64,000 nt of DNA from assembly GCA_051362555.1 (NCBI GenBank), contig CM120645.1, positions 3,782,001 to 3,846,000 of the forward strand, given 5' to 3'. Position numbers and translations under genes: made by a program. Source of the DNA: Lingula anatina. Lineage: Eukaryota > Animalia > Brachiopoda. Below, in pieces: positions 5,801 to 38,900 of this stretch; position 1 is the first letter of the stretch; the number at the start of each line of letters is the position of its first letter. The notes under the pieces are model-generated. The model did no database searches. It saw only the letters and a program-made list of their open reading frames with translations, and had not been told where the DNA came from.

Positions 5801-8800
5801 TGTAGTTTAATCAATTTTGTTCCAATTTTTCATGTACCACCCCTCCCTTCTCTCCCCCCCCCCCCCCACCCCCACGCCAAAAAAAAAAAAAAGCCAGAGA
5901 AAGAGAGAACCCTCATCCACTGGATCTGTAGATATCAACAATTTTCTATTTTCAAAACACTTAAAAGTATTGTTGTTACCTGGAATGAGAGACTTGACAC
6001 CACAATATCTCCATTGGGTGTAATGATGGGAACATCTTCCAGTAAAATAGTGTCTGTATCAATAACTTCACCTATAGAAACAAAATAAATGAATAGATAA
6101 ATATTCATTTTTAGCTCTTGTCATCACATCTTTTTATTATCAGACATTGACCAGAACATGTATTAGATAAAGAGCACATGTATAGAATGACAGTATCTGA
6201 ATTTAAGGTATATGTATTAGCCTTACACTCACTCCGATTAACCATTATAAGTTACTCATCAGATTTGTACTTTTTTGTTACAAACTAGAGGATCAGAGAG
6301 GCGATACCGCCTCCGAATATTGTACCACCAGCTGGAGCAAGCGCATTCATAAAGACCCCCACATATACAAAATAAGGAACACAGCCACCAGTCTTGTGCT
6401 TGACAAGCTGTAAAAATGCAATCAACAAGAATTTTCAAAATATGCAAAAAATATATATATTACTAAAAATGGTACAATCAAAGTTAAGTTCATCGCAAGG
6501 TAGGTCAAAGGTCAATTCCAAGGTCACAGTAAATTGCCAGTATATGACTTCTTATTCAACTTCAATAGTAACTATGGGCCTATCTCTGCCAGGTTTGGAG
6601 TTAAAAGAGAAAGAAATTAGCAGAGTTCAGTTCATGATAATAACTAGGTCAAAGGTCAATTTCAAGGTCACACTTAGATTGCCAGTATATGACTTCCTAT
6701 TCACGTTCAATAGTAACTATGGACCTATCTTTGCCAGTTTTGGAGATAAAGGGGAAGCAAACTATGCAAAGTTCAGTTCATGGTGAAAAGTAGGTCAAAG
6801 GTCAATTTTAAGGTCACATTTAGATTGCCAGTATATGACTTCCTATTCAACTTCAATAGTAACTATGGACCTATCTCTGCCAGTTTTGGAGATAAAAGGG
6901 AAGCAAAATTTGCAAAGTTCAGTTCATGGTGAAAAGTAGGTCAAAGGTCAATTTTAAGGTCACATTTAGATTGTCAGTATATGACTTCCTATTCAAGTTC
7001 AATAGAAACTATGGACCTATCTCTGCCAGTTTTGGAGATATAAGGGACTAAATGTTATAATTTTGGAGTTACCATAATGTGCCATAAATTTCCTACAAAA
7101 AAAAATTAATTAAAATAAAGAAAAGGTCATTTTGGTCAAAATTCTTGAAATGGGAGGTGCTCTGAAGTTCCAGATGTTCAAATTTGATGAAATAATGTCA
7201 TTTTTGACCACAAGTTGTCTGCTTTGCCAAGCCTTATGTTTTATTTTTCCGGAGTTCAAAATTTATTATCCATTACCGTACTGCACATTTTGCTTTCACC
7301 ACCAATATGTACTTTTTGATACAGCGTAACTCAAAAACCGTATGGAATACAAAAAAACGGAGACCACCTCCAGTGTTGGGCTTTACATGCTCTACAAAAT
7401 GCAAAAAAGAATGGGTGTCTAGCATTAACGGTTCCGGAATTAGAGCAGTTTTCAGTTTCGATATCTTATGGCCGCTACTCCCGTGAAAATGCACCGATTG
7501 ACCCCAAATTCACGGAGATGAAAGATGACCTGAAGGGTAACACTTTCCATTAATATTATTAGTTAAGTCTGTGTTGTGTCTGAATAAGACCGCAAATAAT
7601 TTTTTTTTTGGCAAAAATTTTGTTTTTTTGAAAATTTTGGCCCGTTTGACCTTAAAATAAAGGTCAAAGGTCAAATCCAAGGGCATATTTGAAATCTACA
7701 CATATGACTTTTGGAAAGCTGTCTGTAGAAATTTTTCCCATAATTCCTTCTGTAGGGGAGATAATTAGCATTTAATTTTGCCATTTTTGGACAAGGGTGC
7801 ATTGCAATGAGTGCCACACCTAGACCCCAATACCGACAAAGCCCAAATTTTACGTGGAACGAGTTGAGATTATAGGTGACCTAAATCCAAGAGATGGGTA
7901 TGGAGGCCCTTACCGTCTAGGAGGAGAAGCGGTAACGGTGACTTGGCGGCGGAGCCGCAGGAGCCGGCGGAGCCGCAGGAGCCGGCGGAACATACGGGTC
8001 GGGACTAAAACCATGTGTACCGCCAGCGCCTACGCTGGTGGTACAATAAATGATTGCATATTAATATGTTTTTTTATAACACGTGGAAATCAAGATAAAT
8101 ATTTTAATTACATAAGTGAATCTTTTCTTTGGGGAGGGGGGGGTGGGGGAGGGGGTTAGGGGTACCTCTGGATCTGCCTTGTCAGATTTTTATAACAAGG
8201 CAGCAAAGCTGTCAAATGTACAGACAAAGAATAGAAAATAAAGATGCAAATAAGTGAAAAATTAAATTTTCACAAAAAACTGTTAAATTGCCAGAAAAAT
8301 TTACCAAACAGACTGCGTTGCCTATTGAAGCTGTATGTTAGACCCATGTTTCTTTCCTGTAAGTTTGAGAACAGTAAGTGACATGATTTCCCTTAAATGG
8401 TCATCATAGGAGCAGTGCCCAAAATAGGGGTTTCTTCAAATTTTGATGCAACATTACATAATGTTTAACAGCATAATGACAATCAAATGTTATTAATAAA
8501 ATATTAGTAACATGGACATTCAGAAAATGTGACAAGCAAAAGTCTTCAATATCATGGAACTTTAAAGTCACACCTTGAAAATGCCAATATGTGAAAAATT
8601 AAATTTTCACAAAAAACTGTTTAACTGCCAAAAAAAAAAAAAATACCAAACAGACTGCATTGCCTACTGAAGCTGTTTTTTAGTCCCATGTTTCTTTCCT
8701 GTAAGTTTGAGAACAGTAAGTGACATGATTTTCCTTAAATGGTCATCATGGAAGCAGTGCCCAAAATAGGGGTTTCTTCAAATTTTGATGCAATATTACA

Positions 8801-11800
8801 TAATGTTTAACAGCTTAATGACCATCAATTTTGAATTATAAAATATTTGTATCACAGATATTCAGAAAATGTGACTAGCAAAGGTCTTCAGGCCCATGGA
8901 ACTTCAAAGTCACGCCTTGAAAATGCCAAAATGTAAACAAGACAGCACTGTTCTGAAATGGGTTTATTTCCATTTTTAACACTTTTTTAACATAAAACAA
9001 AATAAACAGTTTTTTACCATTTGTATATGATCAACTAAGAAAATTGATGAGTTGGGAAAAATATCAATAGAACAGTGTTAAATGTCCAATTTCCTCCATT
9101 CTGAGATAATGAATATAGTAGATGATTGAATCTGACAAACTGCAATGATATTTGTTTATTTCCATTTTTGACACTTTATAACATAATACACAATAACAAG
9201 TTTACCATCATTTTTACATAATCAACTAACAATGTTATTAAGATGCAGGAAATGTCAAACAAACACTTTTACGTATCTTATTAGTTCAATAATGAGACTG
9301 TTAATATGCCTAACAATTGAATCTGAGGAAATGTGAAAAAACAGCATAACTTCTAAAAGAATGGCCCAATTATGCTGATTTTGGAACTCAACCTGCATTT
9401 TAGTTAGTTTGACTACTCCTGTGAGTATAATGACAATTGGCCTGTTTTTCTTATATTGTGTTATTAGCGTTGCATATATGTTGAAAGAAGTGAAAAAACA
9501 GCATAACATCCCTAAAAATGGCCCGATCATGCTGATTTTCAAACTTGACCTGCGTATTTTGAATATTCATCAGTTTTGTAAGTTTCAAGCCAAAAGGTAA
9601 AATGGTTTTCCATTTATGGTGTTATCGGTGCTGCATATATGCTGAAAAAGAGAAAAAATAGCCTAAATTCACTAAAAATGACCCAATCACGCTGATTTTC
9701 GAACTTGACCTGCGTATTATGAATATTCATCAGTTCTGTAAGTTTCAAGCCAAAAGGTAAAACGGTTTTCCACTTATCGTGTTATCGGTGCTGCATATAT
9801 GCTGAAAAAAGTGAAAAAACAGCATAAATTCCCTATAAGTGACCCGATCATGCTGATTTTCGAACTTGACCTGCGTATTATGAATATTCATCAGTTCTGT
9901 AAGTTTCAAGCCAAAAGGTAAAATGATTTTCCACTTATCGTGTTATCGGTGCTGCATATATGCTGAAAAAAGAGAAAAAATAGCCTAAATTCACTAAAAA
10001 TGACCCAATCACGCTGATTTTCGAACTTGACCTGCGTATAATGAATATTCATCAGTTCTGTAAGTTTCAAGTCAAAAGGTAAAACGGTTTTCCACTTATC
10101 GTGTTATCGGTGCTGCATATATGCTGAAAAAAGTGAAAAAACAGCATAAATTCCCTATAAGTGACCCGATCATGCTGATTTTCGAACTTGACCTGCGTAT
10201 TACGAATATTCATCATTTCTGTAAGTTTCAAGCCAAAAGAAAAAACAGTTTTCCACTTATCGTGTTATCGGTAAAAGTGCACGGCGACGACGGCAAAGGC
10301 GACGGCGACGACAGACGCAGATGATGGCTATATGTACAGACACATCTGTGTCTGTACATAAAAAGTGAAAAAACAGCATAAATTCCCTAAAAGTGACCCG
10401 ATCATGCTGATTTTCGAACTTGACCTACGTATTATGAATATTCATCAGTTCTGCAAGTTTCAAGTCAAAAGGTAAAATGGTTTTCCACTTATCGTGTTAT
10501 CGGTAAAAGTGCACGGCGACGGCGACGACAGACGCAGATGATGGCTATATGTACAGACACATCTGTGTCTGTACATAAAAAATACTGTCACCATGTACAT
10601 TTATTATACCTTTAATCTGGAGGGGCCCTTGGATCTTCTTCTGCGCTCCTTTTGCAGCCTTGTTGGAGGTGACCATGTTACGTTTGTATTTTCCTTTCCT
10701 CACATCTTCAAACACCTCAAACATCTCTGATACACGAGAGGTATAACCAGCTAGCTCTGTTATCTATATACACACACAAAATCGACAAAAATAAGCTGTA
10801 TATAAATTCAATGTCACACAATTAAATTCTCAAAGGCATTCAATTAAAGAACAGAATAAGATTATTCACCAGACCTTATTCACATCAGAAGTTCAATTGA
10901 AAAACAGTGGTCTACTAAAATAAACAAATCTTAATGAACAGAATCCCCACCTCTTTATAAGAAGACATCATTCTTTCTATTGCATCAGCTGAGTTGATCA
11001 AAAGGTTTCTAGCAGTGGTGAAATTCTGCGTGCGTTCACTTACTCCCCCATCTGGGTCATCATCTATAAAGCTACCTGAAAGCACACATGTAAAACACTC
11101 TCATTTAAATGCATCTTTTCACTCTTATATTCCAACTGCCTTAATTTAGATATATGTTATATAGACCATAGTCTTTTAATTGCACCAGGTCTGGATCAGC
11201 ATCTAAGTCACTATCTGATAAACAGATAAAACAGCAGAATAATATTGTTAGCATTGATCTTGTTATGATGTAACTGTTTTCCCTTCGATTTTTCCCCCCT
11301 GCCTCCCATCCCCATTTTCTCCACTTCTGCTTCTAAACAATGAAGTATCTGGAGCCAATATTCTATTACCATTTTCGTGTTAACATGGATGAAAACATTA
11401 CACTGCTCATGCTATACAGCAACTATGCCTAATCCAGTATACATTGATCATCTATAACTGGCCACACATGTTTGATAACTACACACACCTCCTACCATAT
11501 AATCACATATAAGCTTACCATCTTGTCTCTGTCCTACAGTAGTAATCATAGGCACTGCCACCATGACCAGACCACTAGCGCTCCAAACATATTTCATCAG
11601 GAACTGCTCCAGCATGATGTACCACAGTCGTTTACGGAAGATGAGGTCCATCTGATTAGCTAGTGCTTGGTAACTTCTCTGCAGCAGGCTCTCCTCGGTC
11701 TAGGAAAACAGGGAATAAACATAAAAAGGAGAGTTGTGGTTGAATTATGAGATGCTGTTCTTAATTTTATCATTAATAAATCATGTGAAACATATAATTG

Positions 11801-13018
11801 TGCCTAATAATTGTATTATGTTTTTTTTCTGAAGACAGTTAATTACTTGATTATCTGGTAAAAAATAAATGTTATGTGGAGACATAAAGTGAAGCATAAT
11901 ACTTACCTTGTGTCCTCCATAGAAGGCAATTTCCTCTGCATTAGCTATTACTCTGGAGTGAATATAGCGTAGGTATCCCTTCTTGCTGGCCTCTTCAGCA
12001 ACCAATTTTCCAAACTTTGGTGATACTGCTCGTAATACCTTGCCTGTTATCACAATAACTACAGCAGCGAGAACAGATGGAATTCGAGAACTTGCACCTC
12101 TACTTGATGCCAGCTACAATGATAGTAATGTTTCCACAATATTGTTCAATGAAATATGACATTATGAGGAAAAATTTAATATATATACAGACAAACCAAC
12201 ACTATGAAAACATTATCTCCTTCATTGGTAGAGGTAATTAAAATAATTTACAATTCCAGTTGTGATACCTTGTACAGAGTGAAAGACATCAAAGCCACAT
12301 CTAACAATGGTTTGGTGAGGTGGGAATATAGATGAGCAAGAGAGGAAGTAAATTCTGCAATATCTTCTGTCAGACACTGGTCGGCATTGGTCAAGCGCCC
12401 ATCCAAGTTGCTGACTCTGTAGTAAGTTTGATTGAGGAAATACTTGCTGTATGCATGATTTACGAGTTGTGTGCGCAGTGCCAAAGCCAGTTTACTCTCA
12501 AGAAAACGGATCAAACTGTTCACAAAGGTCGCTGGCACAGCAATGAGTAGCCATTTGGAAAGTTGGACAACAAATTTCATTACATCCTGTTTGACTATTG
12601 TTCTAACAATTCTGCCATCTAACTTAGCTACGTATATGGACAGAAATGTTCTTGATACAAGAGACGCCGTATGTAGGGCCAGTATGGCGAATTCTTTGGA
12701 CCAAATAGATGGGATGAGAATTTTCAACAGTTTTCTTAGTTGTAGGAAAAACTGTCTATCAACACCAGGTGCCCTTGCATTCTTTCGCTTTTCTGCTTCT
12801 TCACCTTCTCCGTCATCTCCATCTCCTTTTGATCCGTCTGCCCGTTTTCGACCTTTGATTTCAGGCAAGAAATACTTAGTCAGGTGAGGATAAAATCTTC
12901 CCACTCCGTATGCTGCTATTAAAGCAGCTGCAACACCGCCAATGACTTTCTTCCGACATCCAGGGTTTTTTGATGCAATTTTTATCAGTTTGTACACCGT
13001 TCTCTGTGCATTTTCCAT
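2888..13018 (-). CDS. ABCD2: Peroxisomal ABC half-transporter, subfamily D (ABCD1/ABCD2 co-ortholog), 11 coding exons, 747 aa
   Basis: Exons (minus): 13018-12269, 12113-11907, 11699-11519, 11075-10951, 10763-10610, 6071-5980, 5658-5513, 5302-5157, 4728-4644, 4339-4214, 3119-2888. All GT-AG with consistent phases, total 2244 nt. Motifs: [22 protein letters not shown]-like [19 protein letters not shown], Walker [10 protein letters not shown], signature LSGGEKQR, Walker [17 protein letters not shown]-loop [19 protein letters not shown]1 versus ABCD2 cannot be resolved from motifs; the symbol was chosen on synteny. Confidence 0.95.
6283..8047 (-). mobile_element. Non-autonomous Helentron/HINE-type element, family A, copy 1, with about 4 internal 146-bp tandem units (ABCD intron 5)
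   Basis: Near-identical to 36489-38816. Subterminal inverted repeat TTGTACCACCAGC/GCTGGTGGTACAA, terminal palindrome GTACCGCCAGC...GCTGGTGGTAC, GC-rich microsatellite-like (CGGAGCCGG)n; the other end has hairpin GAGGCG..CGCCTC and CTAG. No ORF. Confidence 0.75.
8194..10580 (-). mobile_element. Helentron/HINE (pearl-like) element, family B, copy 1, with an internal array of about 160-bp units (ABCD intron 5)
   Basis: Starts AACAAGGCAGCAAAGCTGTC-AAATGTACAGACA (hairpin plus subterminal repeat). Ends with a (GACGGC)n microsatellite and palindrome ATGTACAGACA-catc-TGTGTCTGTACAT. Array units begin near 9531, 9691, 9852, 10013, 10174. Homologous to 31897-34530. Confidence 0.72.
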
Positions 13019-13399
13019 TTCAGAAATGAGTACTAAGAAATTATATCACGTGAAAAAGAGGACGACGCGAACCTTGGCCACCATATTAGTGACCTTTACC
13101 TCTGGTGATTAAAAAATTTGGATTTTACCGAAATACTTGCATCTCGATATAATGCTCATAAGATATACCATATAAATCTCACTATATCCCAACAAAGAAT
13201 TCGATGTTTTCGAGAATATTAACAACCTAAAACTCCTATCATTTAACGTCAGTTTTTGTTATAAATTGTCTAAACCCGTGCATTTATATTAACCGGAAGT
13301 CAGCGCATCGTCTGCTATCTCTGCTAGCTGAGCTGTGTTTGGCAGCAGCCGAGTTGGTTATAGTTTCTTCGAAAGAAAACAACAACAGAAAAAATAACA
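13019..13399. promoter_or_regulatory. Probable bidirectional promoter shared by ABCD and REDIC1-like
   Basis: Divergent ATGs separated by 381 bp; local CpG enrichment; ETS/GABP motif ACCGGAAGT at 13292-13300; palindromic E-box TCACGTGA at 13046-13053. Confidence 0.6.
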
Positions 13400-16300: not shown

Positions 16301-19300
16301 CTAACAATAAGAAAAAAGACACCCTGCTCTGGGAGTATGAGGAGAGTCATCACAAACAGGAAGTGCCTAAAAGTGATGGTAACATCCTTAACTGCTTGCT
16401 AGATGACGCTGCCTTCAATAAGCTCAATCCTCGTCCACTGAATAAATCCCAAGATAAGACCCCTACTTCAGGACATTCATCTGAGGGTTTTAGTCCACAG
16501 GTGCATGCCCATAGCATCACTGGACAAGAGATGGGTACACCTAAACAGCGCCATGGTAAAAGTTTTGTTACACCCAGGCATAACCAGGACACCTGTACAC
16601 CAAGCCATTCAAGGTATTGATGCATGATATAACACAAAAATAGCTATGTGACTACACCCACACTGCCCAGTCTGAGAAAACATAGATTTAGATTTGTTGA
16701 CCATATCCTCAGCTATGCTGTGCTGTAATGTTTGTAACAGTAAAATTTGTTTTAAAACTTTCTAGTTGAATTTGTATAAAAATTACGCCTGCTAGTAGGC
16801 ATTTAAAATGTTGCCTAGGCAAGACTTCAAAAGTTAAAATTTTGCCTGGGGAGGAGATGTGGATAAAAACTTTCACTGAGTTCAATATGGACTCATATAT
16901 GTATGCATGTATATGGCTATGAGTCACTCATAGAAATGATTGCAAGTGGATGTGCATTGCTTCAGTTGTGACAGGATATGTTTACTGGAACATTCATTGG
17001 GCTGATAATTGACAGATATTGCAGTGCAGGGGCGGATCCAGACATATTTTCTGACTGTCTTCCAAATTATCTTTGTTGATCTGTCCTCCTTTTTATGACT
17101 GTCTTCCAACATAAAAAAATAGATACCTGTCAATGTCAACTTGCAAATCTGACCGTCTTCTGGAAGACCCAGAAGACGGCCTAAATCCGCCCCTGCAGTG
17201 ATTACTATGCCTAAAAAAATATTTAATAAGTAGCTGTTGATACACTTGATAATATATATAGAGTGGAATTAAAAAAAATATTCAGTGAACTTTTTAACAT
17301 ATCAACATATAGCTCATTACTTTTTAACATGATTCTTGCTAAAAAACAAAAGGCTGCTCATCACACAGAATGTTAGAAAATTAAACTCCAATTAATTTTT
17401 TTTTCTAATTCATTTTTAGAGGATTGCAGAGTAGTGAATCAAGTGAGAAACGTGAAATGCAGGTGAGCACATTTTAAAGGTGGTGTTAAATTCTGTAAAG
17501 TGCCAAATATTCTTTAATTATTAAGATTATGAGAGCAGTACATATGTTTTCCTTTAATACCATCCCTGTAAACAGTTGCATGAATTTGGGTTAAAAAGAA
17601 AACTTTTAGTAATGATAAGGATTGCTCTGAGAGCATAATATGACATTTCAAACTGCCCCAAACAGCACACCAGATTGTAAAGATATAACATCATTTCAAT
17701 TTCAGAACTCAATTTCTGAATAATTTAATTATTCTTTCAGAAACCCTCATGCAAAAACGCTGTGGCTTGTGAAGAGATGAATAATAAAGTTAATTCATCC
17801 AAAAATCCTTCTATTTGGAAAACTCCATGTCAGTTCGCTGAAAGCCCATCTTCCAGTGGAACAAACCTTAAAATGCAATCGTCTTTACCAACAGTGTCCA
17901 GTGATACTTGCAAAGCAAACATGCTTCAGATGCAGGGTTTTATTCCTCATGGTCTGGGGACCAAACCATCTCAATCTGATAAAATAGCATCAGCCTGTGA
18001 CACAACAGAGAGGAAGCAAATGACAGATAGTCCAGTAAGGGCAGTTTCAGAGAAAACCAATAGTTTAATGAGCCAGGAAATTGTTCAGAGAGCCGTGACC
18101 TGTAGTCTTATTTCAGGAACAGAGCTTGGAATCTTTGATGTTAACACCAGTGCTGTCATTCCTTCAAACAAGGAAATGGTTCCAGAAGAAAAAATAAAAG
18201 AATGCAACCCACAATATAACAAAAATGCAGTACCAAAGAAGGAAGACCAAACTGATATTGCAAACAACAAAAAACAAGTAAATATGCAGAAAACACATGA
18301 AGATGATTCTCTGAAGAATACTGTTGCACAACCTCCTGAGTCAAGGGAACCTCGAGATAAAGTAATTTAAAGCCACATATTATTGGGGTTTAGATTGTTA
18401 TGCAATACTGATATAAATGCAAATGTGTTCATTCTCTAATGTAATCAACTATTGTGTGTTAATACCTGTCTGTCTGTCTGATATGATTGTGGATTGCATC
18501 ATGTTTTACACTTAATTTCAAGTAATCTGATTAAATCCCTTGTTGATTGAAATCATTTCTGCCAACAACACAGGAATGCATCTCTCTTTAGCAAAATTTC
18601 AGAGCACTAAGGAGATTTATGACAAATTCAGTAAAATGATATTTGTGAAAAATCAATTTCCTGTTTTAAAGAAAAGAAGCAATCAGTAATCACGCAAGAA
18701 GTCCTAATCCCAGTTGTTTCCAATTTCCATTTTCAGAAGATGGATTTGATAGAAACCTCTCTAGACAGCCAACAAAATTGTGCAATCTTCACAGGTAACC
18801 TTATACTTTTAATGTCTTAACTGGCAATTTCTTTCTCTACCGCGAGTTCAAGATTTTATCGGATGAAGGCAAAAGTCATAATAAACTGCACAGAGTTTAT
18901 TACTAGGTGCATGTGATAAACATAAAAAATAGGTTTAAGACTTCTATATATGTAAACTACTAGTCACATTTAATGAATTTAAAAGGAAATGGTCTCATAC
19001 TACCAGTACAAGTTTTGATTTGAATGTTTTTTTAGTTTGTTTTTGATAATATGTTAGTCATTTAAGTCCATTTTTCACTAAGAATACAGATTAAGGTTTT
19101 CTATATATTACCTTTGTTGGTTTTTATTGGAATATTGCTTTTGAATTATTAAGAAATATACATGAATAATTAATGTTTTCAACTAAATGCCCATGCAAGT
19201 CTGTTATGCATTGCATAAATTTATGCTCTGCATGATAACTCTGACAGAAAGTCCACAATTGCAAGCAAAACATAAAGATTTTTCTTTGTACAAGTGTTAT

Positions 19301-22300
19301 TCTCATCTACTACTACTACTATCTCCTATTACGCCGTTGGGCGTCTAGGGCGTCAACAAAGGTCCTCCACTCCTCTCTGTCTCTCGCTAGGTGTTGAATT
19401 GTCCCCCAACTTTCACCCAGTTGTTTCAATTCTGCTTCAACTGTCCTCCTCCATGTGGTCTTGGGTCTGCCCCTTTTTCTATGCCCCTCTGGTGTCCAGT
19501 ACATGGCTACTTTAGTGGTGGAATTTGGGTCTTTCCTCAGAACATGGCCAATCCATTTCCATCTTCTTGTCCTGATGATTTCACTTATACTTCTCTGGTT
19601 TGTTTGCTTTAGCAGATCATCATTAGATATAGTTCTTGGCCAAAATATTTTTAATATTTTTCTGAGGCTTGAAGTGTGAAAAGTAGACAACTTTTTTATA
19701 TCTTCTTCAGTTATGCGCCAGCATTCCGAACCATAGAGAAGAGTTGATAGTATACAGCTCTCAAATATTCTGAGTTTGGTTTTTATACTATATTGAGAGC
19801 ATTTCCAGATTTTGTTTAAGCTCTTAAAGGCATTTCTGGCTTTGGTTAGTCTGTTGTTGACATCTCTACTGGTTCCTCCATCTGTGGCTACAATGCTTCC
19901 TAGGTATGTAAAGCAGCTGGTGTTATTAAGGATGCAGCCTTCCACTTCAACTGGTGGTGGTGATTGTATATTTAATGCCATCACTTCAGTCTTCTTTTTG
20001 CTTATCCTAAGCCCAATTTGCTGACTGAAGATGTTAAGTATGTCAGTCTTCTCTTGTATATGCTGATGTGTGTGGGACAGTAATGCAAGATCGTCTGCAA
20101 AATCGAGGTCTTCTAGAGTCGAGTATAAAGTCCATCTTATTCCTCTTGATGTATCTTCTGTGGTGCGCCTCATTACCCAGTCAATTGCTAAATTAAACAA
20201 GATGGATGACAGCACACAGCCCTGACGCACGCCCGTTTGGACTTTAAAACTCATATTAGTCTCACCAACACAACAGCAGAAGTGACTATAAAAGCATCTT
20301 ATCATCCTAACAACTTTTGGTGGTACTCCGTAATTTCTAAGGATCTTCCAGAGACTATCTCTATGTATACTGTCAAAAGCTTTTTCAAAATCAATAAAGT
20401 TAATAAAGAGCTGTCGTTGCCATTCTGTGCACTGCTCTATGATGTTACGTAGAGCAAATATCTGATCTGTGCACCCCACACCCTTTCTGAAACCAGCTTG
20501 TTCTTTTCTGAGCTCTTTGTCTACTGCATCTGATATTCTATTGGCTATTATTTTGCAAAGTATTTTGCTTGGTATGGACAGAAGCGTTATACCTCTCCAG
20601 TTATTGCAGTCCCTGAGTGACCCTTTCTTTGGTATTTTGACAATGATTCCTTTATTCCAGCTATTTGGAATTTTTTCTTCCTTCCATATTGCAGTGTACA
20701 GGGGTTCCAAAAAGGCTGCTGCTATCTCTGGTGATGCTTTGAATAGTTCAGCATTCAAGTTGTCGTTTCCTGGTGCCTTTCTGTTCTTCATTGACTTTAT
20801 TGATTTAATAATTTCAGTCTTGGTAGGTGTGTTTATGTCAATATCTAAATCTTCTGCTGCTTCTGGTATATTCGCTTGTGTTGTTGGTGGTGGTCTGTTG
20901 AGAGTTTCAGTAAAGTGTTCTGTCCATCTTTTTTGTATATCTTCTTCCTTAGTAAGTAGAGTCCCATTTTTATCTGCAACTGGTGAATTATTGCTCTTTG
21001 TGCTCATTTTTCCACAGATAACTTTGGTGATCTTATAAACTGTTCCTTGTTCATTTCGTGATGCTGCTTCTTCTGCACTCAATGCTAGTTGATCTAAAAA
21101 CTCCCGTTTATCTGTTCTGACAAGACGTTTCACTATCTTATGTGCTTCTCGGTATTCCTCTTGGTATCTTTCAATAAGTCTTTCTGACTTGGCATCTAGT
21201 AATTTCTTTTTGGTGCTGCGCCTGGATTCTATTGCCCTCCATGTGGTTGGTGTCATCCATTCTTTTTTGGTTCTTGTTCTATATCCCAGATATTTCTCAC
21301 TACATTGTTTGTATGTTGAGGCTACTTCATTCCAAAGATAGTCAACCTGTCCTGGTGGTGTCTCTTGTATTTCAAGATCTTCAAGAACTTTAAATCTGTT
21401 CTTTAAGTGGACTGTGAACTGTTCCTTGATTTTTGTGTCCTTTAGCCGTTCAACATCAAATCGTTTCCTTACTTTCTGCTGTGGTCCTGACTTTTTTAGC
21501 TTTAGTCTTATAAAAGCTTCAGTTAGGTGATGGTCACTTCCAACGTCAGCACCCCTTCTCACGCGCACATCTAACAAAGATCTTCGCCATTTTCCATTTA
21601 TCATTAGGTGGTCAATTTGATTCTTGTCACGTCCATTGGGGGATGTCCAAGTCAACTTATGTATTAAGCGGTGGGGGAAGAGAGTGCCCCCTATGACTAG
21701 ATCATTCACGTTGCAAAAATCAACTAAACGTTCACCATTTGCATTAATTTCACCACATCCATGTTTTCCCCGAACTCTGTCATCTTCGAATTGTTTGCTC
21801 CCCACTTTAGCATTTATATCACCCATCACAATGATCATGTCATGTTGAGGTACTTTCTCTATTGTGGCTTGTAAACTGAGATAGAAATTATCTTTTACAT
21901 CGTCTTCTCTGTCGTTTGTGGGTGCATAGCACTGGATCACTGTCAGGTTGACTTGGTTCCCTTTCAATCGTACCCTTATAATTCTGCTGTTAACAGGCTC
22001 CCATTCTAGCATGGAGTGGGTCACTTCTTTTCGTAGGATAATGGCAACACCTTCGTGGTGTTGTCCGTCTTCTCGTCCTGAAAATATTACCGTCTCTCCT
22101 GTTGCTGCTTTTTGTCTGCCAGAGCCAGTCCATCTACATTCACTTATGCCCAATATGTGTAGCTTGTAGCGCTCCATCTCTGTTATAATTTCTGCTAGTT
22201 TTCCAGCTTCATACATGGTTCTCACATTCCAAAAGCCAATTCTGGTTTTAGTCTTTGTGTGCAAAACGCCCATCTTCATGGCAGTAGTTTCCAGGTGGAT

Positions 22301-24735
22301 TTGACCACTGTCAGTCATATAAGTCGACAATGACTCTGGGGGCTCAGCACATCGAGTAGTGTTGAATATCTTTGTTGCCGTTTCCGTAACTGTTATGGTT
22401 TTCCGGGGTGGGGTTGTTGGCCCCACGCCCAACCCCCTACCAGGAGGGCCAGGGTTTTTTGTCAGGGATTTCCTTCCCTTAGTCACTAAATCGGGTTATC
22501 AGGCGCCCGAAACCCGCCTTTCGCCGCTGCCTCTCAGCTTCAGCATTTCCAGGGCCACCACGTGGAGGCGAGACATGCGACTAGCTTGGCAGAGCCTGAT
22601 TGAGACGGTGGACATAACTGAGTTTTGTTGAGTGCTACTTAGTGACATCAGTAGCTCCCCTCAGTGTCCATTTGCCAGCCGTTTGACCCCGTTATTCTCA
22701 TCACATAATGTTTATTTCTTTTTTTATCCCACCAGAAGAACATGAAGAAAATAAATCAGGGGGAAATATGTCTTCGAGGAAAAGCACTGTTAAACTGAAT
22801 GTCAACAGCCTGACCAGTGACTCTTCTGACATTACAAGTATGTGCACCTCAGGCATTGCCAACAAAGAAGAAGAGTCTGACCCATGCAGGGGTGATACTG
22901 TAACAGCTGGAATCCCTTGTGTAATGTCAGTCCTTGGCAATGGAAGTAAATTTGAAACTCAGAGTTTAGTTGACACCACTGAAAATGAAGTCATGTGTGA
23001 CAATGCTGTTTCTGACAAAGATTGCCTTGCAGGAAATGGCAAAATCAATAAAACTGTATCCTGGGATGTACTGAATGATATTTTAAAGACAATTGAAAGA
23101 GATGCTTTTCTTGGTGCTTTTGGATCTTCAGAGGATAAGCCGAAAAATGTAAGCACTGAGAATACCATAAAACCCAGCAACACAAACAAAACATACAATG
23201 TAGTAGAAAACACAGATGCCATTGCTCACTCAACTATGAATGAATTGTTAGACCTTATATGTTATGAGCAGAGGAAGGAAGCTCAGCATCAGAAGCCAGA
23301 AGGAAAAGAATGCAACAACTACAAGAAACCACCATTAACATCTTTTCAGCCTGTTCCAAACCACACGTCTGATGTGGTCTCACTATGTTCCCTAAGACAC
23401 TCAACACTCCCCATACCTACATTATCAGAGATGTGTACTAAAGCCATGACCAAATTTTCACCAGTACCTACTTCCACTGATAGAGAAGTAACTCCAACTG
23501 GAAAGATGGCATCAAAAAATTTACCAGGGCCACAAGAACTGACTTCTACCAGACAGCATATGATACCGCATAAACAAAAAGGATGCATCCACCAGCAGGT
23601 CCAAGTGGACCCATATAAATTGGGTGTACTGTGTCAAACTGCTACACAGTGTGATATTCCCTCTCCTTCAAGTGCACTACTGAATGGGAAACCCATGGGA
23701 CCAGTGCATGCTGTGGTGTCCAAGAGTGTACAAACAGAAATCCATGCGGTGGACATAAATGGTTTTGAAAGTACGAATAAGGTGTCATCCTCTTCTTCAC
23801 AAAGAGAAGGTGGTTGCAGATATTGTGGATGCACCTGCAGTGTAAACAGTCCTGGAAATGTCAATGGGCAGGCTACAGTGTCTCCTACAGCAGTGGAAAA
23901 TATTGGTCCTCTCAGTGGAGGTGATGATTCTCTGTCAAACACCCAGGAGAGTTGTCATTTTCCCCCAGAGAAGGCTTGTCAAGAACATGAGGAATCTACT
24001 TTGTCATCACAAGAATCTGAGCATGGGTTCATATCACAAGATAACAAAAATACTTTTCCAGTTTGTACGAACAAGCCTCAGGAACCTAAGAAGGCTGTAC
24101 TGGAAAAACAAAATGACACTCCAGTAAACCTGCCTACTGAAACACCATCAGCTGACTCTGGTGAGCTTCAGGTTTCATTATCCAAAGATTCTAGTAAGAT
24201 TATCCCACAAGAACAAAGCAAATATACAACACAAGTACCTACAATTGAAACTGTAGCAAAGAAATCTGTCCAGGAATCATCACCTGACAAAGTTTCATCA
24301 CAAGAATTCAAGGGTGAATCTACGAATAATCAAGATTCTTTTCCAGTGCCTGATAAAATGTCCTCACAGAGCTCTTCAAAAGACCGTAATGAGGTATCGT
24401 CACATACTAATAATTTTATTGTATCATTCTCACAAGAGACTGGTTTGCCTTTCTCACAGGACCAAAGTGGTGATTTGTCACAGGCGTCTACTGCCTGCAC
24501 AGATACTGGCAGCATGATTAAGATAGCTGCAGAGGCTCCACAAGTCTCTGCCAACACTGGCCAGAATATGGAAGCCCAAATGACCAGAGGTGCAAAGAAA
24601 AGAAAAACATGTATTAAAATGGAATCTTCTTCTTTGAAAAGAAAAAGTAATGGAGAACATGCCATGCCAGAGCAAAAACAGTACCACCTTCGTGCAGCCA
24701 AAATTAGGAGAGTTGTGATGAAGAATTCAAAGTAA
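13400..24735 (+). CDS. REDIC1: REDIC1/C12orf40-like protein (conserved N-terminus, long low-complexity S/T/Q-rich remainder), about 1497 aa
   Basis: Exons: 13400-13462, 13811-13958, 14271-14424, 14726-14921, 15131-15241 (GC donor), 15414-15455, 15556-16613, 17420-17462, 17741-18361, 18737-18794, 22736-24735. Phases are consistent, total 4494 nt. The N-terminus MNWVGGVRSRIKSQQERKIQK|EFFERRK...VSQDLLAL...ELPMSP matches my recollection of C12orf40 (MNWVGGSRSR...ERRKQKEYFE...VSLDILNL...ELTMSP). The small internal exons are less certain. Confidence 0.82.
17027..17195. mobile_element. 169-bp MITE, copy 1 (CAGGGGCGGAT terminal inverted repeats, 5-bp TSD CAGTG)
   Basis: TIRs CAGGGGCGGATCCAG / CTAAATCCGCCCCTG; CAGTG on both sides; homologous to 53514-53682. 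Confidence 0.85.
19319..22318 (-). CDS. RTE ORF: AP-endonuclease plus reverse transcriptase (999 aa from the first ATG; frame open up to 22486)
   Basis: APE motifs WNVRT, GISECRW, YAPT, GDINAKVG, TWTSP, NQIDH, SDH. RT motifs KAPG.D, NWRGITLL, EQAGFR, FIDFEKAFDS, GVRQGC.LS, FADD, YLGS. C-terminal LLYGSECW, RWKWIGHVLR, GRPKTTW typical of RTE; no C-terminal zinc finger. Confidence 0.95.
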   Translation of the reverse strand: MTDSGQIHLETTAMKMGVLHTKTKTRIGFWNVRTMYEAGKLAEIITEMERYKLHILGISECRWTGSGRQKAATGETVIFSGREDGQHHEGVAIILRKEVTHSMLEWEPVNSRIIRVRLKGNQVNLTVIQCYAPTNDREDDVKDNFYLSLQATIEKVPQHDMIIVMGDINAKVGSKQFEDDRVRGKHGCGEINANGERLVDFCNVNDLVIGGTLFPHRLIHKLTWTSPNGRDKNQIDHLMINGKWRRSLLDVRVRRGADVGSDHHLTEAFIRLKLKKSGPQQKVRKRFDVERLKDTKIKEQFTVHLKNRFKVLEDLEIQETPPGQVDYLWNEVASTYKQCSEKYLGYRTRTKKEWMTPTTWRAIESRRSTKKKLLDAKSERLIERYQEEYREAHKIVKRLVRTDKREFLDQLALSAEEAASRNEQGTVYKITKVICGKMSTKSNNSPVADKNGTLLTKEEDIQKRWTEHFTETLNRPPPTTQANIPEAAEDLDIDINTPTKTEIIKSIKSMKNRKAPGNDNLNAELFKASPEIAAAFLEPLYTAIWKEEKIPNSWNKGIIVKIPKKGSLRDCNNWRGITLLSIPSKILCKIIANRISDAVDKELRKEQAGFRKGVGCTDQIFALRNIIEQCTEWQRQLFINFIDFEKAFDSIHRDSLWKILRNYGVPPKVVRMIRCFYSHFCCCVGETNMSFKVQTGVRQGCVLSSILFNLAIDWVMRRTTEDTSRGIRWTLYSTLEDLDFADDLALLSHTHQHIQEKTDILNIFSQQIGLRISKKKTEVMALNIQSPPPVEVEGCILNNTSCFTYLGSIVATDGGTSRDVNNRLTKARNAFKSLNKIWKCSQYSIKTKLRIFESCILSTLLYGSECWRITEEDIKKLSTFHTSSLRKILKIFWPRTISNDDLLKQTNQRSISEIIRTRRWKWIGHVLRKDPNSTTKVAMYWTPEGHRKRGRPKTTWRRTVEAELKQLGESWGTIQHLARDREEWRTFVDALDAQRRNRR
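22513..22690 (-). ncRNA. Candidate HDV-like self-cleaving ribozyme at the 5' end of the RTE element
   Basis: The minus-strand RNA starts GGGGUC(A) exactly at the TSD boundary and pairs with (U)GGCCCU (22557-22551), with a G1.U wobble. P3 is GCC/GGU closing L3 UCCACGU; P1.1 is CC/GG; P4 is UGCUG/CAGCG; J4/2 is GCGAA (putative catalytic C at 22523); P2 UGUCU/AGGCG is imperfect; J1/2 is long and structured. Confidence 0.72.
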
Positions 24736-32900: not shown

Positions 32901-35900
32901 TGCAATGATATGAGTTTATTTCCATTTTTGACACTTTATTACACAATACACGATAAAAAGTTTACCATCATTTTTACATAATCAACTAACAATGTTGTAA
33001 AGATGCAGGAAATGTCAAACAATCACTTTTACGTATCTTATTAGTTTAATAATGAGACTGTTAACATGCCTAAGAATTGAATCTGAGGAAATGTAAAAAA
33101 ACAGCACACCTTCTAAAATAATGGCACGATTATGCTGATTTACGTACTCAACCTGCATTTTAGTTAAATTGACCACTCCTGTGACTTTCATGACAATTGG
33201 CCTATCTGTTTTTCTTATATTGTGTTTACAGTGTTGCATATATGCTGAAAAAAGAAAAAAAAGCATAACTACTAAAATAGTGGCCCGATCATGCCAATTT
33301 TCGAACTTGACCTGCGTTTTAGTAAGATCAATTTTTCCTGTGAGTTTCATGACAACAGGCCTATCGGTTTTTGTTGAAATGTGTTTACAGTGTTGCATAT
33401 ATGCTGAAAAGTGAAAAAACAGCATAACTTCTACAATAATGGCCCGATAATGCTGATTTTCGAACTTGACCTGCATTTTATGAATATTCATCAGCTCTGT
33501 AAATATAAAGCCAAAAAGTAAAACTGCCTTCCACTTATCGTGTTTACAAGGAAAGTGCACGGCAACGACGGCGACGGCGACGACAGTCGCAGGTGATGGC
33601 AATATGTACAGACACATCTATATATATTTACTGTACTGTTTGAGAACATGGTTTTTCTTAAATGGTCATCATGGGAGCAGTGCCCAAAATAGGTTTTTTT
33701 CAAATTTTGATGCAATATTACATAATGTTTAACAGCATGATGACCATCAATTTTTAAGAATAAAATATTAGTATCATGGATATTCAGAAAATGTGACTAG
33801 CAAAGGTCTTCAGGCCCATGGAACTTCAAAGTCACAACTTGAAAATGCCAAAATGTAAACAAGACAGCACTGTTCTGAAATGTTTTTTTTTTTCATTTTT
33901 AACAATTTTTAACATAAAACAAAATTAACAGTTTACTGCCATTTTTATATTATCAACTAAGAAAATTGATGAGATGGGAAAAATATCAACAGAGCAGTGT
34001 TAAATGTCCAATTTCTTCCATTCTGAGATTCTGAACATAATGAATGATTGAATCTGACAAACTGCAATGATATGAGTTTATTTCCATTTTTGAAACTTTA
34101 TTACACAATACACGATAACAAGTTTACCATCATTTTTACAAAATCAACTAACAATGTTGTAAAGATGCAGGAAATGTCAAACAAACACTTTTACGTATCT
34201 TATTAGTTTAATAATGAGACTGTTAACATGCCTAAGAATTGAATCTGAGGAAATGTGAAAAATATGCTGAAAAGTGAAAAAACAGCATAACTTCTACAAT
34301 AATGGCCCGATCATGCTGATTTTCGAACTTGACCTGCGTTTTATGAATATTCATCAGCTCTGTAAATATAAAGCCAAAAAGTAAAACTGCCCTCCACTTA
34401 TCGTGTTTACAAGGAAAGTGCACGGCGCCGGCATCGCCATCGCCATCGGCATCGCCATCGCCATCGGCGACGGCGACGACAGACGCAGGTGATGGCAATA
34501 TGTACAGACACATCTGTGTCTGTACATAAAAATGTCTGTGTACATGCTTGCTCAAAAAGGTCATTTCATTTTGGGCCCTGTTCCTGGATTTCAACTTGAG
34601 GCCATATCCCTGACTGACATATCTTAAATGCAAAGTACATGTAGGTCAACCAGTTTGCGTCTTTTTTCCTCACCAAAGTGCCTGTGTGAAACCTCAAATG
34701 TGCCAATTCCATCAGAACAAACACCAAATGAAAGAAACTAGACATGTGAAGTATGCACTGAAGCTCTATAAGCAAGCTTGAGCTCTCTTATTGATTTAGA
34801 AGATTTATAGTCTTGTATTTTGAAATAATGCTGTAGGACCCACACAGTGTAATATGGTAACCAAAGTATAGAAGTCAAACCACAGTGGACTACAGGCACA
34901 TGGACATGATTGAGGGTAGAAATTCAAAATCAAGGCACCCAAGTTTCAGAGGATACCAGAAACACAATTCTCTTCTGTCAGCATACCTATGCTATTTCAA
35001 GTTTTTGAAACTAGAGTATGTAGATGTAATGTGGTAGAAGGCGCCTTTTCATAAATTGCCCTCTGAGGCTCAGGGTACTCATGGGAACTGGTTAAATTCA
35101 AAGTTTAGAATATAAACAGTTGTATTAACTTACTAAAATGGAACAAAGTTGACTGAATACTATTAGGTTTGTCTCTAAAAGTAATGTTTAGCAAGTAATA
35201 CCCAGAAAAAGCTAGGTAAAAAGCTGGAGAACTAGTTTGTTTCAGGCCAGAAAGTATTTTATCATCTGACGATGTCAATTAGTTATGAAACTGACAATGA
35301 GGATTTTTCTTGGTTTCCAGTGTAGAAGCAAATTTAATCAAAATTTTATGTATTTTTTTGAAAGGTTCCTCATGATAACAGACAAGGCTCTATATATTTA
35401 TATCAATTTTGTTACTATCATTATCATTATCAGGACATTAAGTGGGAGGTAAAAAAAGGTGGAGATAACCACAGGCTGGCTTTTAAGACCTTGATAAAGA
35501 CCAGCACCCACAACAATAACAAAAACTCCCACTTGAAAACCAATTTGAAGGAAGTTGAATCAACTGTAAGTGTGTAAGATTCAATACACAGGGCCTAACT
35601 GTATTAAATATCACTCTACTGTTCTGACTTAAAATAACAATGTAAATAGCATTTCAAAGATGAGACAGCGGCCCTCCATCAAAATATTCCCAGTGCACCT
35701 CTAATTAATTTAGTTTTCTCATAGTTGGCAACTCTACTTCCTGTTTAAGCCAAGAATACAACAACCAACATTGATCTTGATTCTACATTCAGAATTGCTG
35801 ATAATTACTTAGTTTGATTAGTTTTCATGGATTATCTAAATGGGATGAGCAAGCACGCTGGCACATCTAGACAAGTCCTGAGATACATGGCTCTATTTGA

Positions 35901-38900
35901 AGTGGTGTTTGGAACTTTCTGTTTAAATTTGTAGAGTTGCATCATTAGTCCAAAGCTTCCTCGGTCCGATACTTTTTATAAAAGCATTTTTTCAGATGTT
36001 CATTGGTCTTTAGTCTCCAGTGCAATTTTGGAAAGAGATAAAGGATTGACTGCATGGTGTTGTTGTTTTAACAAATGTTCCTTTGAATCTATAGCTAGGA
36101 GGTACCCAGACCTAGTTGTAGTGGGCCCTAGTTCATAGCTAGGACCTACCCAGACCTAGTTGTAGTGGGCCCTAGTTCATAGCTAGGACCTACCCAGACC
36201 TAGTTGTAGTGGGCCCTAGTTCATAGCTAGGATGTACCCAGACCTAGTTGTAGTGGGCCCTAGTTCAATGATCCTTGAAACCAATGAAACTTCTCACCAA
36301 TAAATGGTGGGAAAGCCTGTTAAGTGTCTATACTTTACAAACTTATAAACAACAACAAACAATATATGATTATTATCTAGGATACAGACAAAAACATCCT
36401 TACTATGTATTACATGGGGATCAAGTTCTCTAAACACAGTCATAGCTCTACGTACTGGTATGTTATTCATTCATTCGCAAACAACTGGAACTAGAGGATC
36501 AGAGAGGTGATACCGCCTCCAAATATTGTACCACCAGCTGGAGCAAACGCATTCGTATAGACCCCCACATACACAAAATAAGGGACACAGCCACCAGTTT
36601 TGTGCTTGACAAGCTGTAAAAATGCAATCAACAAGAATTTTTTAACTATTGCAAAAAATATATATGGTACAATCAAATTTAAGTTCTTCGTAAGGTAGGT
36701 CAAGGGTCAATTTCAAGGTCACAGTAAATTGCCAGTATATGACTTCCTATTCAAGTTCAAGAGTAACTATGGACCTATCTCTGTCAAGTTTGAAGTTAAA
36801 AGAGAAAGAAATTAGCAGAGTTCAGTTCATGATAAAAAGTAGGTCAAAGGTCAATTTCAAGGTCACACTTAGATTGCCAGTATAGGACTTCCTATTCAAC
36901 TTCAATAGTAACTATGGACCTATCTCAGCCAGTTTTGGAGATAAAAGGAAAGCAAAATTTGCAAAATTCAGTTCATGGTGTAAAGTGGGTCAAAGGTCAA
37001 TTTTAAGGTCACATTTAGATTGCCAGTATATGACTTCCTTTTCAAGTTCAATAGTAACTATGGACCTATCTCTGCCAGTTTTGGAGATAAAAGGGCAGAA
37101 AAGTTTGCAAAGTTCAGTTCATGGTGAAAAGTAGGTCAAAGGTCAATTTTAAGGTCACATTTAGATTGCCAGTATATGACTTCCTATTCAACTTCAATAG
37201 TAACAATGGACCTATCTCTGCCAGTTTTGGAGATAAAAGGGAAGAAAAATTTGCAAAGTTCAGTTCATGGTAAAAAGTAGGTCAAAGGTCAATTTTAAGG
37301 TCACATTTAGATTGCCAGTATATGACTTCCTATTCAAGTTCAATAGTAACTATGGACCTATCTCTGCCAGTTTTGGAGATAAAAGGGAAGCAAATTTTGC
37401 AAAGTTCAGTTTATGGTGAAAAGTAGGTCAAAGGTCAATTTTAAGGTCACATTTAGATTGCCAGTATAAGACTTCCTATTCAAGTTCAATAGTAACTACG
37501 GACCTATCTCAGCCAGTTTTGGAGATAAAAGGAAAGCAAAATTTGCAAAATTCAGTTCATGGTGAAAAGAAGGTCAAAGGTAAATTTTAATGTCACATAT
37601 AGATTGCCAGTATATGACTTCCTATTCAAGTTCAATAGTAACTTCGGACCTATCTCTGCCAGTTTTGGAGATAAAAGGAAAGCAAAATTTGCAAAATTCA
37701 GTTCATGGTGTAAAGTAGGTCAAAGGTCAATTTTAAGGTCACATTTAGATTGCCAGTATATGACTTCCTATTCAACTTCAATAGTAACTATGGACCTATC
37801 TCTGCCAGTTTTGGAGATATAAGGGACTAGATGTTATAATTTTGGAGTTACCATAATGTGCCTTAAATTTCGTACAGAAAAAATTAATTAAAATAAAGAA
37901 AATGTCATTTTGGTCAAAATTCTTGAAATAGGAGGTGCTCTGAAGTTTCAGAAGTTCAAATTTGATGAAATAATGTCATTTTTGAACACAAGTTGTCTGC
38001 TTTGCCAAGCCTTATGTTTTATTTTTCCAGAGTTCAAAATTTATTATCCATTACCGTACTGCACATTTTGCTTTTACCACCAATATGTACTTTTTGATAC
38101 AGCGTAACTCGAAAACCGTATGGAATACAAAAAAACCGAGACCACCTTCAGTGTTGGGCTTTACATGCTCTACAAAATGCAAAAAAGAATGGGTCTCTAG
38201 CATTAACGGTTCCCGAATTAGAGACAGTTTTCAGTTTCGGTATCTTATGGCCGCTACTCCCGTGAAAATGCACCGATTGACCCCAAATTCATGGAGATGA
38301 AAGATGACCTGAAGGGTAACACTTTCCAATAATATTATTGGTTAAGTCTGTGTGGTGTCTGAATAACAGGGCAAAAAAAAATTTTTCGTAAAAAATTTCA
38401 TTTTTTTGAAAATTTTGGCCCATTTGACCTTGAAGTAGAGGTCAAAGGTCAAATCCAAGGGTATATTTGAAATCTACACATATGACTTTTGGAAAGCCGT
38501 CTATAGAAATTTTTCCCATAACTCCTTCCGTAGGGTAGATAATTAGCATTTAATTTTGCCATTTTTAGACAAGGGTGCATTGCAATGAGTGCCACACCCA
38601 GACCCCAATACTGACAAAGCCCAAATTTTACGTGGAACGAGTTGAGATTATAGGTGACCTAAATCCATGAGATGGGTACGGGGGCCCTTACCGTCTAGGA
38701 GGAGAAGCGGTAACGGTAGCCGTCCGGCGGAGCCGGCGGAGCCAACGGAGCCGGCGGAACGATCCGGACGGGACCGAAACCATGTGTACCGCCAGCGCTA
38801 ACGCTGGTGGTACAATTAAAGGCTGAAATATGCAGAGCAGCTAGAAAAGACACCAATGTATGGAGTCAATATTCCTGAGGCATGCACACAAATCTCCATC

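Follow-up and report, generated by a model that had tools for sequence, protein, structure and literature searches.

What RNA heads the RTE-type retrotransposon found in a 64,000-nucleotide stretch of Lingula anatina DNA (contig CM120645.1, positions 3,782,001–3,846,000; hereafter the window), and could it set the exact 5′ end of the element? The original prediction placed a ribozyme resembling that of hepatitis delta virus (HDV) there, with its cleavage site at the 5′ boundary of the element. An HDV-like ribozyme heading an RTE element is a known kind of system, and the window holds a new instance of it. At and beyond the 3′ limit of the segment covered by that prediction, our analysis points to a P2 region whose structure is probably a new variant. 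As modelled here, the first ∼210 bases of the element would form, in our moderately confident judgement, an HDV-like ribozyme with a split P2 and a downstream pseudoknot that competes with the proximal part of P2. The coordinates of the features are collected in Table 1.

The window is low-GC eukaryotic DNA, and no second copy of the element was found in its 64 kb. From its anatomy, we take the element to belong to the RTE clade. It has one open reading frame (ORF) for apurinic/apyrimidinic endonuclease (APE) and reverse transcriptase (RT), no separate ORF1, a size within ∼3–3.5 kb, a short-repeat (TAG)n tail at the 3′ end and a 12-nt target-site duplication; the single-ORF definition of the clade derives partly from passages of PMC8501958. 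The protein homologues carry no clade names, and the only named link to RTE elements is a motif in the 5′ untranslated region (UTR), which is also found in one Ingi family. Among the best 120 of 587 protein relatives, the closest are 45–69% identical and largely come from 3–4 kb contigs; those with names belong to fish, molluscs and one brachiopod.

Ten DNA runs contain the stretch, and the contigs of four of them were examined. All four runs contained the empty site, in which one contig joins the right flank to left-flank-like letters with a single copy of the duplication. The insertion is thus polymorphic and probably recent. The element lies antisense within an inferred host intron (∼18795–22735, plus strand; splice sites from GT/AG and open frames only), and the ribozyme motif would therefore not cut the host pre-mRNA.

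All HDV-like motifs listed by the original prediction are present on the minus strand at the positions given there, and the perfect duplication is followed immediately by G22690, the putative G1. Our core descriptor, which leaves P2 out, was written after seeing the window, so its shuffle figures are somewhat flattered; it matched once in the 64 kb, with G1 at 22690. Relaxed and strict core matches occurred in 13 and 2 of 300 shuffled windows, respectively. With shuffles of the first 260 nt, any core match appeared in 3 of 20,000, and one with G1 at base 1 in 1 of 20,000. For the J1/2 domain, 1 of 200 shuffles folded as well. The Rfam models drz-agam-1 (16 bits against a cut-off of 37, E 0.96) and HDV-F-prausnitzii (15.7 bits against 44, E 1.2) covered the core below threshold, and the Rfam scan of 18–28 kb (10 kb) gave no HDV-type match.

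P1 begins with a purine-pyrimidine pair (G-U) at the predicted cleavage site and is 6 bp in length, within the 5–7 bp of HDV-like ribozymes. This length had been thought odd, but it is not: the RNArobo descriptors, in the passages of PMC4870747, accept 5 or 6 bp for P1, a confirmed sea-urchin family there has the same 6-bp register after the GGU strand of P3, and a P1 of 6 or 7 bp is called typical in parts of PMC4908430 and PMC3774820. L3 of the window and of the relative L014 (described below) matches the 7–8-nt pattern TYYHCG(N)Y, and the window L3 is identical to that of drz-Agam-2-1, once the supplement row of the latter is parsed with the published descriptor. At the first J4/2 position, a C-to-U change inactivates HDV-like ribozymes, according to passages of PMC10879173.

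A metagenome scan yielded 21 loci from at least 554 candidate stretches. The prokaryote genome scan gave one match, L022, which is unrelated and was rejected; it brings the collection to 22 loci. The core descriptor matched two of the 22, L006 and L014. L004 and L005 are 5′-incomplete members of the L006 family, and L021 is a decayed piece; together with the window, there are three independent families. The endonucleases of L006 and L014 are 47% and 39% identical to that of the window, respectively. In support of the original prediction, the core is also kept in these two divergent RTE families: G1-U, P1, the 3-bp P3, the L3 motif, GG and CNRA are present in all three, with changed pairs. P3 of L006 and L014 consists of three Watson-Crick pairs that differ from those of the window; P1 is 6 bp in the window, 7 bp in L006 and 7 bp with one mismatch in L014. 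The nested J1/2 domain of L006 has a like overall fold (z −2.84), and that of L014 is weaker (z −1.12). In the two-row alignment of the window and L006, the placement of gaps misrepresents P1.2a, P3 and the inner J1/2 stems, and the fold and coordinates of L006 itself were used. The Rfam scan of 16 of the 22 loci gave no HDV-type match. Viral contigs gave 0 matches to the 5′ UTR pattern and 85 matches to the peptide pattern, none of which was confirmed.

Other insertions also place the 5′ boundary at G22690 or a few bases from it. Their contigs diverge from the window into unrelated flanks at 22690 (X1), 22691 (X1, record 5) and 22696 (X4), and one (X2, record 21) diverges one letter past 22690. 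The loose letters beyond the 5′ end differ between X1 and X4, so no common longer 5′ end is apparent. X10 lacks a contig across 22644–22669 and was left out of this comparison. In the X1 junction, the two letters before G1 are GG on the element strand, and extra G's are possible at some 5′ junctions. The main contigs (X1, 22150–22586 and 22557–22677; X2, 22557–22690) contain no variant letters, which indicates that the 6-bp P1 and the weak P2 are traits of the family and not of this copy alone.

Compared to the core, the P2 region is unusual. The published HDV descriptor, as given in passages of PMC4870747, has a P2 of at least 6 bp that is contiguous with P3, starts right after CNRA and holds at most one bulge. 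A strict canonical P2, which would open with a C-A mismatch in each of the families, was considered and rejected as a conserved feature. The three families have in common a 4-bp proximal helix, which ends 2 nt before P3 and starts at C+5 (−3.0 kcal/mol for the proximal P2 in the window). This offset register is the only one of 20 to be common to all three; 366 of 50,000 shuffles yielded a common register. A distal helix follows, of 7, 7 and 5 bp in the window, L006 and L014, with its 3′ strand 37–44 nt after the C. In L006, six of its pairs are retained, with two one-sided changes. In every family the distal 5′ strand adjoins the proximal 5′ strand with a gap of 0–1 nt, as would be expected for a coaxial extended P2.

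From the 3′ strand of the proximal P2 onward, a likely H-type pseudoknot (22519–22491) is predicted. Its first helix, S1, starts at C+4 and encloses a loop of 9 nt in all three families; the 3′ end of the loop pairs, as S2, with the bases following the conserved AUAA. Across the three families, one S2 pair reads G-C, C-G and U-A, and one S1 pair alternates between G-C and A-U; S1 of L006 and S2 of L014 have broken terminal pairs. In a hand alignment, S1 and S2 were the only common helices of at least 4 bp; they contained three double changes, and 1 of 20,000 column shuffles did as well. In an automatic alignment that leaves L014 unanchored at AUAA, 93% of the cells were paired, compared to 33–61% in slid controls. 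A loose descriptor of the pseudoknot is not rare: it gave 21 matches in 222,856 bases, of which 8 fell in a 146-bp satellite, with 3.6 expected from shuffles. In the 22 loci, 4 of its 5 matches adjoin J4/2. A translation start right at the pseudoknot was considered and dropped, as L004–L006 do not preserve the reading frame that begins there.

S1 and the proximal P2 compete for one strand (22519–22515), whereas S2 and the distal helix are compatible with either state. The nested energies are close, −22.6 kcal/mol with S1 and −21.6 kcal/mol with the proximal P2 plus S2, the terms for P1 and the knot not being counted. The original prediction was right that P2 has a competitor; the conserved one, however, is the predicted pseudoknot, which reaches 22491, past the 3′ limit of that prediction.

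From these features the following mechanism can be proposed. The RNA would fold as a double pseudoknot and, with C22523 as the putative catalytic base, would cut a read-through transcript 5′ of G22690, giving the element its precise 5′ end. When active, P1.2, the distal P2, the proximal P2 and P3 would form an extended stack, from whose 3′ strand the S2 hairpin bulges, and P1.2 plus the extended P2 would pinch P1 against P2, as in drz-Agam-2-1. After (or before) cutting, S1 would capture the strand and convert this state into the compact knot, and the RNA would behave as a two-state system. The knot would attenuate cutting or refold the RNA afterwards, and the refolded RNA may serve later in translation or protein binding. 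By analogy with L1Tc, the knot overlapping P2 is likely a switch or attenuator; that it replaces P2 is less likely.

Several points weigh against a ribozyme with a split P2 and a competing knot. Some concern the core: P3 of the window has two Watson-Crick pairs and one G-U pair where the descriptor asks for three Watson-Crick pairs, and the decayed L014 copy has P1 interrupted by a C-A mismatch. L3 of L004–L006 is 10 nt in length, its first seven bases matching the motif and three variable bases following, so it would be missed by fixed-length descriptors. Others concern P2, where the 6-bp rule holds nowhere (longest runs of 5 in the window, 4 in L006, 4 in L005 and 1 in L014) and the distal helix of L014 overlaps the next hairpin and is doubtful. 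S1 (−6.6 kcal/mol) is stronger than the proximal P2 and would be complete before the distal helix forms; the active state may thus seldom arise. In nested-only partition functions, the probability of P1 and of both parts of P2 is about zero; pseudoknots are beyond such models, and the nested minimum-free-energy and partition folds, which do not recover P1 and P2, were not used to choose between the states. The comparison of P2 and the knot has only three independent families behind it. The hand alignment was built by coordinates, with region and blocks picked after the helices were seen, and in the automatic alignment the covariation of S1 and S2 did not exceed the shuffle control, in which 202 of 500 were as high. 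Finally, judged by the antisense intronic position, transcription of the element itself may not be assured.

Part of this evidence can be turned into a different fold. S1 would stack on P3 in place of the proximal P2, which would make the knot a part of the active ribozyme; the 6–7-nt strand before P3 would be a linker, and the distal helix would keep the long-range closure. S1 is all Watson-Crick, and its start at C+4 in the three families is the published position of the P2 3′ strand; its greater strength than the proximal P2, its constant loop length and the C-A mismatch that opens a strict canonical P2 in every family also favor such a strand swap. However, the offset proximal P2, whose common register was reached by few shuffles, would be purposeless here, and the literature searched gave no precedent. 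Given also the three families and the automatic-alignment control, which is not significant, we regard the strand-swapped fold, itself a product of modelling, as rather unlikely.

Slightly less probable again is that the core is catalytically poor or dead and its fold is kept for protein binding, cap-independent translation or protection of the 5′ end, the precise end coming from an internal promoter or from the cleavage site of an ancestor. The P2 below the published rule, the wobble in P3 and a copy-specific 7-bp helix that can capture P3 all speak for a poor catalyst. A trypanosomatid ribozyme with a 3-bp P2 is very weakly active, according to passages of PMC4035085, and seven sister RTE loci have a different 5′ structure without an HDV core. 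Against it, families with an endonuclease identity of 39–47% have all retained G1-U, L3, GG and the C of the CNRA motif. The element is also intact and its insertion polymorphic, which argues that its RNA was processed at G1 recently.

The 7-bp helix itself (22572–22566 with 22519–22513) had been put forward as an inactive conformer or switch. It is real in this copy, where no other partner of the P2 3′ strand is as strong (duplex −10.2 kcal/mol; nested state −25.8). It is not conserved: in L006, 3 of the 7 pairs do not form. A functional on/off conformer of this kind is therefore highly improbable, and the helix may yet be a misfolding trap in the family of the window. That a GC-rich 5′ UTR resembles the HDV motif by chance, as suggested by the lack of an Rfam match at gathering score and by a descriptor written after seeing the sequence, can practically be dismissed in view of the 1 in 20,000 shuffles, the coincidence with the duplication boundary and the changed-but-kept pairs in two other families.

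Table 1. Coordinates of the retrotransposon, its 5′ RNA elements and other features (window positions unless a locus is given)
Feature	Position	Strand	Details
RTE-type non-LTR (non-long-terminal-repeat) retrotransposon, full-length, 3,383 bp	19308..22690	-	(TAG)n tail starting at stop codon
Target-site duplication, 5′ copy, 12 nt	22691..22702	.	Perfect; empty site carries one copy
Target-site duplication, 3′ copy, 12 nt	19296..19307	.	Identical to 5′ copy
Single ORF, 1,058 codons stop to stop, first AUG 22318	19319..22495	-	AP endonuclease, reverse transcriptase and DUF6451 matches
P1, 5′ strand; G22690 = G1, predicted cleavage 5′ of G1	22685..22690	-	
Structured J1/2 (P1.2-type) domain, nested stems	22583..22684	-	z −2.87
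Distal P2 helix, 5′ strand	22577..22583	-	7 bp, −7.3 kcal/mol
Weak proximal P2, 5′ strand	22571..22575	-	Pairs with 22519-22515; C22570 unpaired before P3
P3 with 7-nt L3, one G-U pair	22557..22569	-	P3 22569-22567 with 22559-22557; L3 22566-22560
P1, 3′ strand, 6 bp, G1-U wobble	22551..22556	-	
GG, would pair with L3 as P1.1	22549..22550	-	Present in 3/3 families; pairing predicted
P4 region, two possible registers	22525..22545	-	Short hairpin 22538-22526 is the register kept in L006
J4/2 with putative catalytic C22523 (CNRA)	22520..22524	-	CNRA in 3/3 families
Predicted H-type pseudoknot	22491..22519	-	S1 22519-22515 with 22505-22501, 9-nt loop
Pseudoknot S2	22510-22506 with 22495-22491	-	Conserved AUAA 22499-22496
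Distal P2 helix, 3′ strand	22480..22486	-	Pairs with 22583-22577
Small hairpin common to many RTE 5′ UTRs	22464..22479	-	GGAAGGAAA motif
L3 with three extra bases	L004:5-21, L005:111-126, L006:1151-1166		
Sister 5′ UTRs	L001:1-110, L002:1205-1345, L003:1187-1320, L012:668-805, L016:212-350, L017:60-200, L019:232-340		
Satellite-like arrays	6479-7047 and 36695-37824; 9471-10272 and 33096-33548		
ABC transporter exon	12248-13045	-	ABC_membrane_2, E 8.4e-57

In addition to the ribozyme region, the 5′ UTR and its relatives contain several other features. The GGAAGGAAA motif of the small hairpin also occurs in RTE-1_NV, RTE-4_NV, RTE-3_BF and Ingi-3_AC, according to the PMC5786205 supplement. The segment around it, 22448–22482, is found as well in a far deeper-covered repeat with different flanks, which is probably another RTE family or a short interspersed element (SINE). 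In all four DNA runs, contigs leave the 5′ UTR at 22330 and 22360 for letters like the 3′ end of the element; judged from these letters, the junctions likely belong to short, internally deleted non-autonomous derivatives. One derivative (X4, record 26) retains J1/2 and has 78 other letters in place of 22417–22574.

The seven sister RTE loci have a conserved structured 5′ UTR of their own, with 27 consensus pairs, 10 of them with a double change; neither an HDV core, by the custom descriptor, nor a fitting Rfam match was found in these seven 5′ UTRs. Their structure is a candidate for another 5′-processing RNA or a promoter. Upstream of the first AUG, the window contains a VTET-encoding motif (22390–22318, minus strand). 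Among 15 rows having this motif, 9 have it in the reading frame of the endonuclease domain with no stop in between, L008 and L009 being near-duplicates; seven further loci with the WNVR anchor are without it, and in many predicted relatives the open frame continues across it. On sequence grounds, this suggests an upstream non-AUG start.

Elsewhere in the window, 146-bp and 159–161-bp tandem arrays represent two satellite-like families, each at two places. The host exon next to the element (22735–24735, plus strand) is long, with ∼670 codons and no Pfam match, and the element lies ∼30 nt upstream of its inferred splice acceptor.

The interest of the locus is that three divergent families break the published P2 rule alike and have a predicted competing knot in common. 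If the switch is true, it would provide a compact, mutable model of one 5′ UTR acting as a ribozyme and then as a signal for translation or protein binding. If the knot replaces P2, the space of HDV folds is wider, and descriptor searches have undercounted such ribozymes. It is improbable that this RTE ribozyme subfamily has rewired the HDV fold, with the helix stacking on P3 donated by the downstream H-type pseudoknot and not by the upstream P2 strand; if it has, a widespread active variant would be hidden from P2-based searches, with cleavage coupled to a knot that serves translation or binds protein.

Non-LTR elements headed by HDV-like ribozymes were reportedly described by Ruminski et al. 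in 2011. That RTE, Baggins, R2 and related elements can have them at their 5′ ends is established, according to passages of PMC6765202 and PMC5786205, and Perere-3, another RTE element, has a variant of twister according to PMC8501958. Like the known RTE and R2 ribozymes, the core in the window lies exactly at the 5′ boundary of a single-ORF element with APE and RT, and a release from the co-transcript is predicted. Different from them, it lacks a contiguous 6-bp P2 beside P3 and has a predicted split P2 and a predicted conserved knot from C+4. Literature searches, which covered mostly titles and abstract openings, gave no split P2 or such knot; this is weak evidence of absence, as primary supplements may include the family. 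The phrases "discontinuous P2" and "P2 insertion" did not occur in the portions of text searched.

A close counterpart is drz-Agam-2-1, which is of RTE origin. Both have a large structured J1/2 (P1.2), an extended P2 of ∼12 bp and, as parsed, the same 7-nt L3; in passages of PMC4908430, the structured P1.2 and the extended P2 (12 bp) activate drz-Agam-2-1. However, its P2 has 7 bp contiguous with P3 and its P4 is long, whereas the proximal P2 of the window consists of 4–5 weak offset pairs, and the extension is ∼28 nt away on the 3′ strand, across a segment that could form the knot. Sea-urchin HDV-like ribozymes, in the passages of PMC4870747, include one family with the same 6-bp register of P1 after the GGU strand of P3, but they have a short J1/2 and a canonical contiguous P2. 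As for the proposed switch, sequence downstream of the L1Tc ribozyme converts it to a non-catalytic fold, according to passages of PMC3185411 and PMC4035085. Like L1Tc/ingi, the window has element sequence just 3′ of the ribozyme that could refold it to a non-catalytic state, with a proposed role in translation; different from the window, L1Tc/ingi belongs to another clade, and its fold is of three helices and recognised by RNase P, whereas that of the window is a predicted compact H-type pseudoknot.

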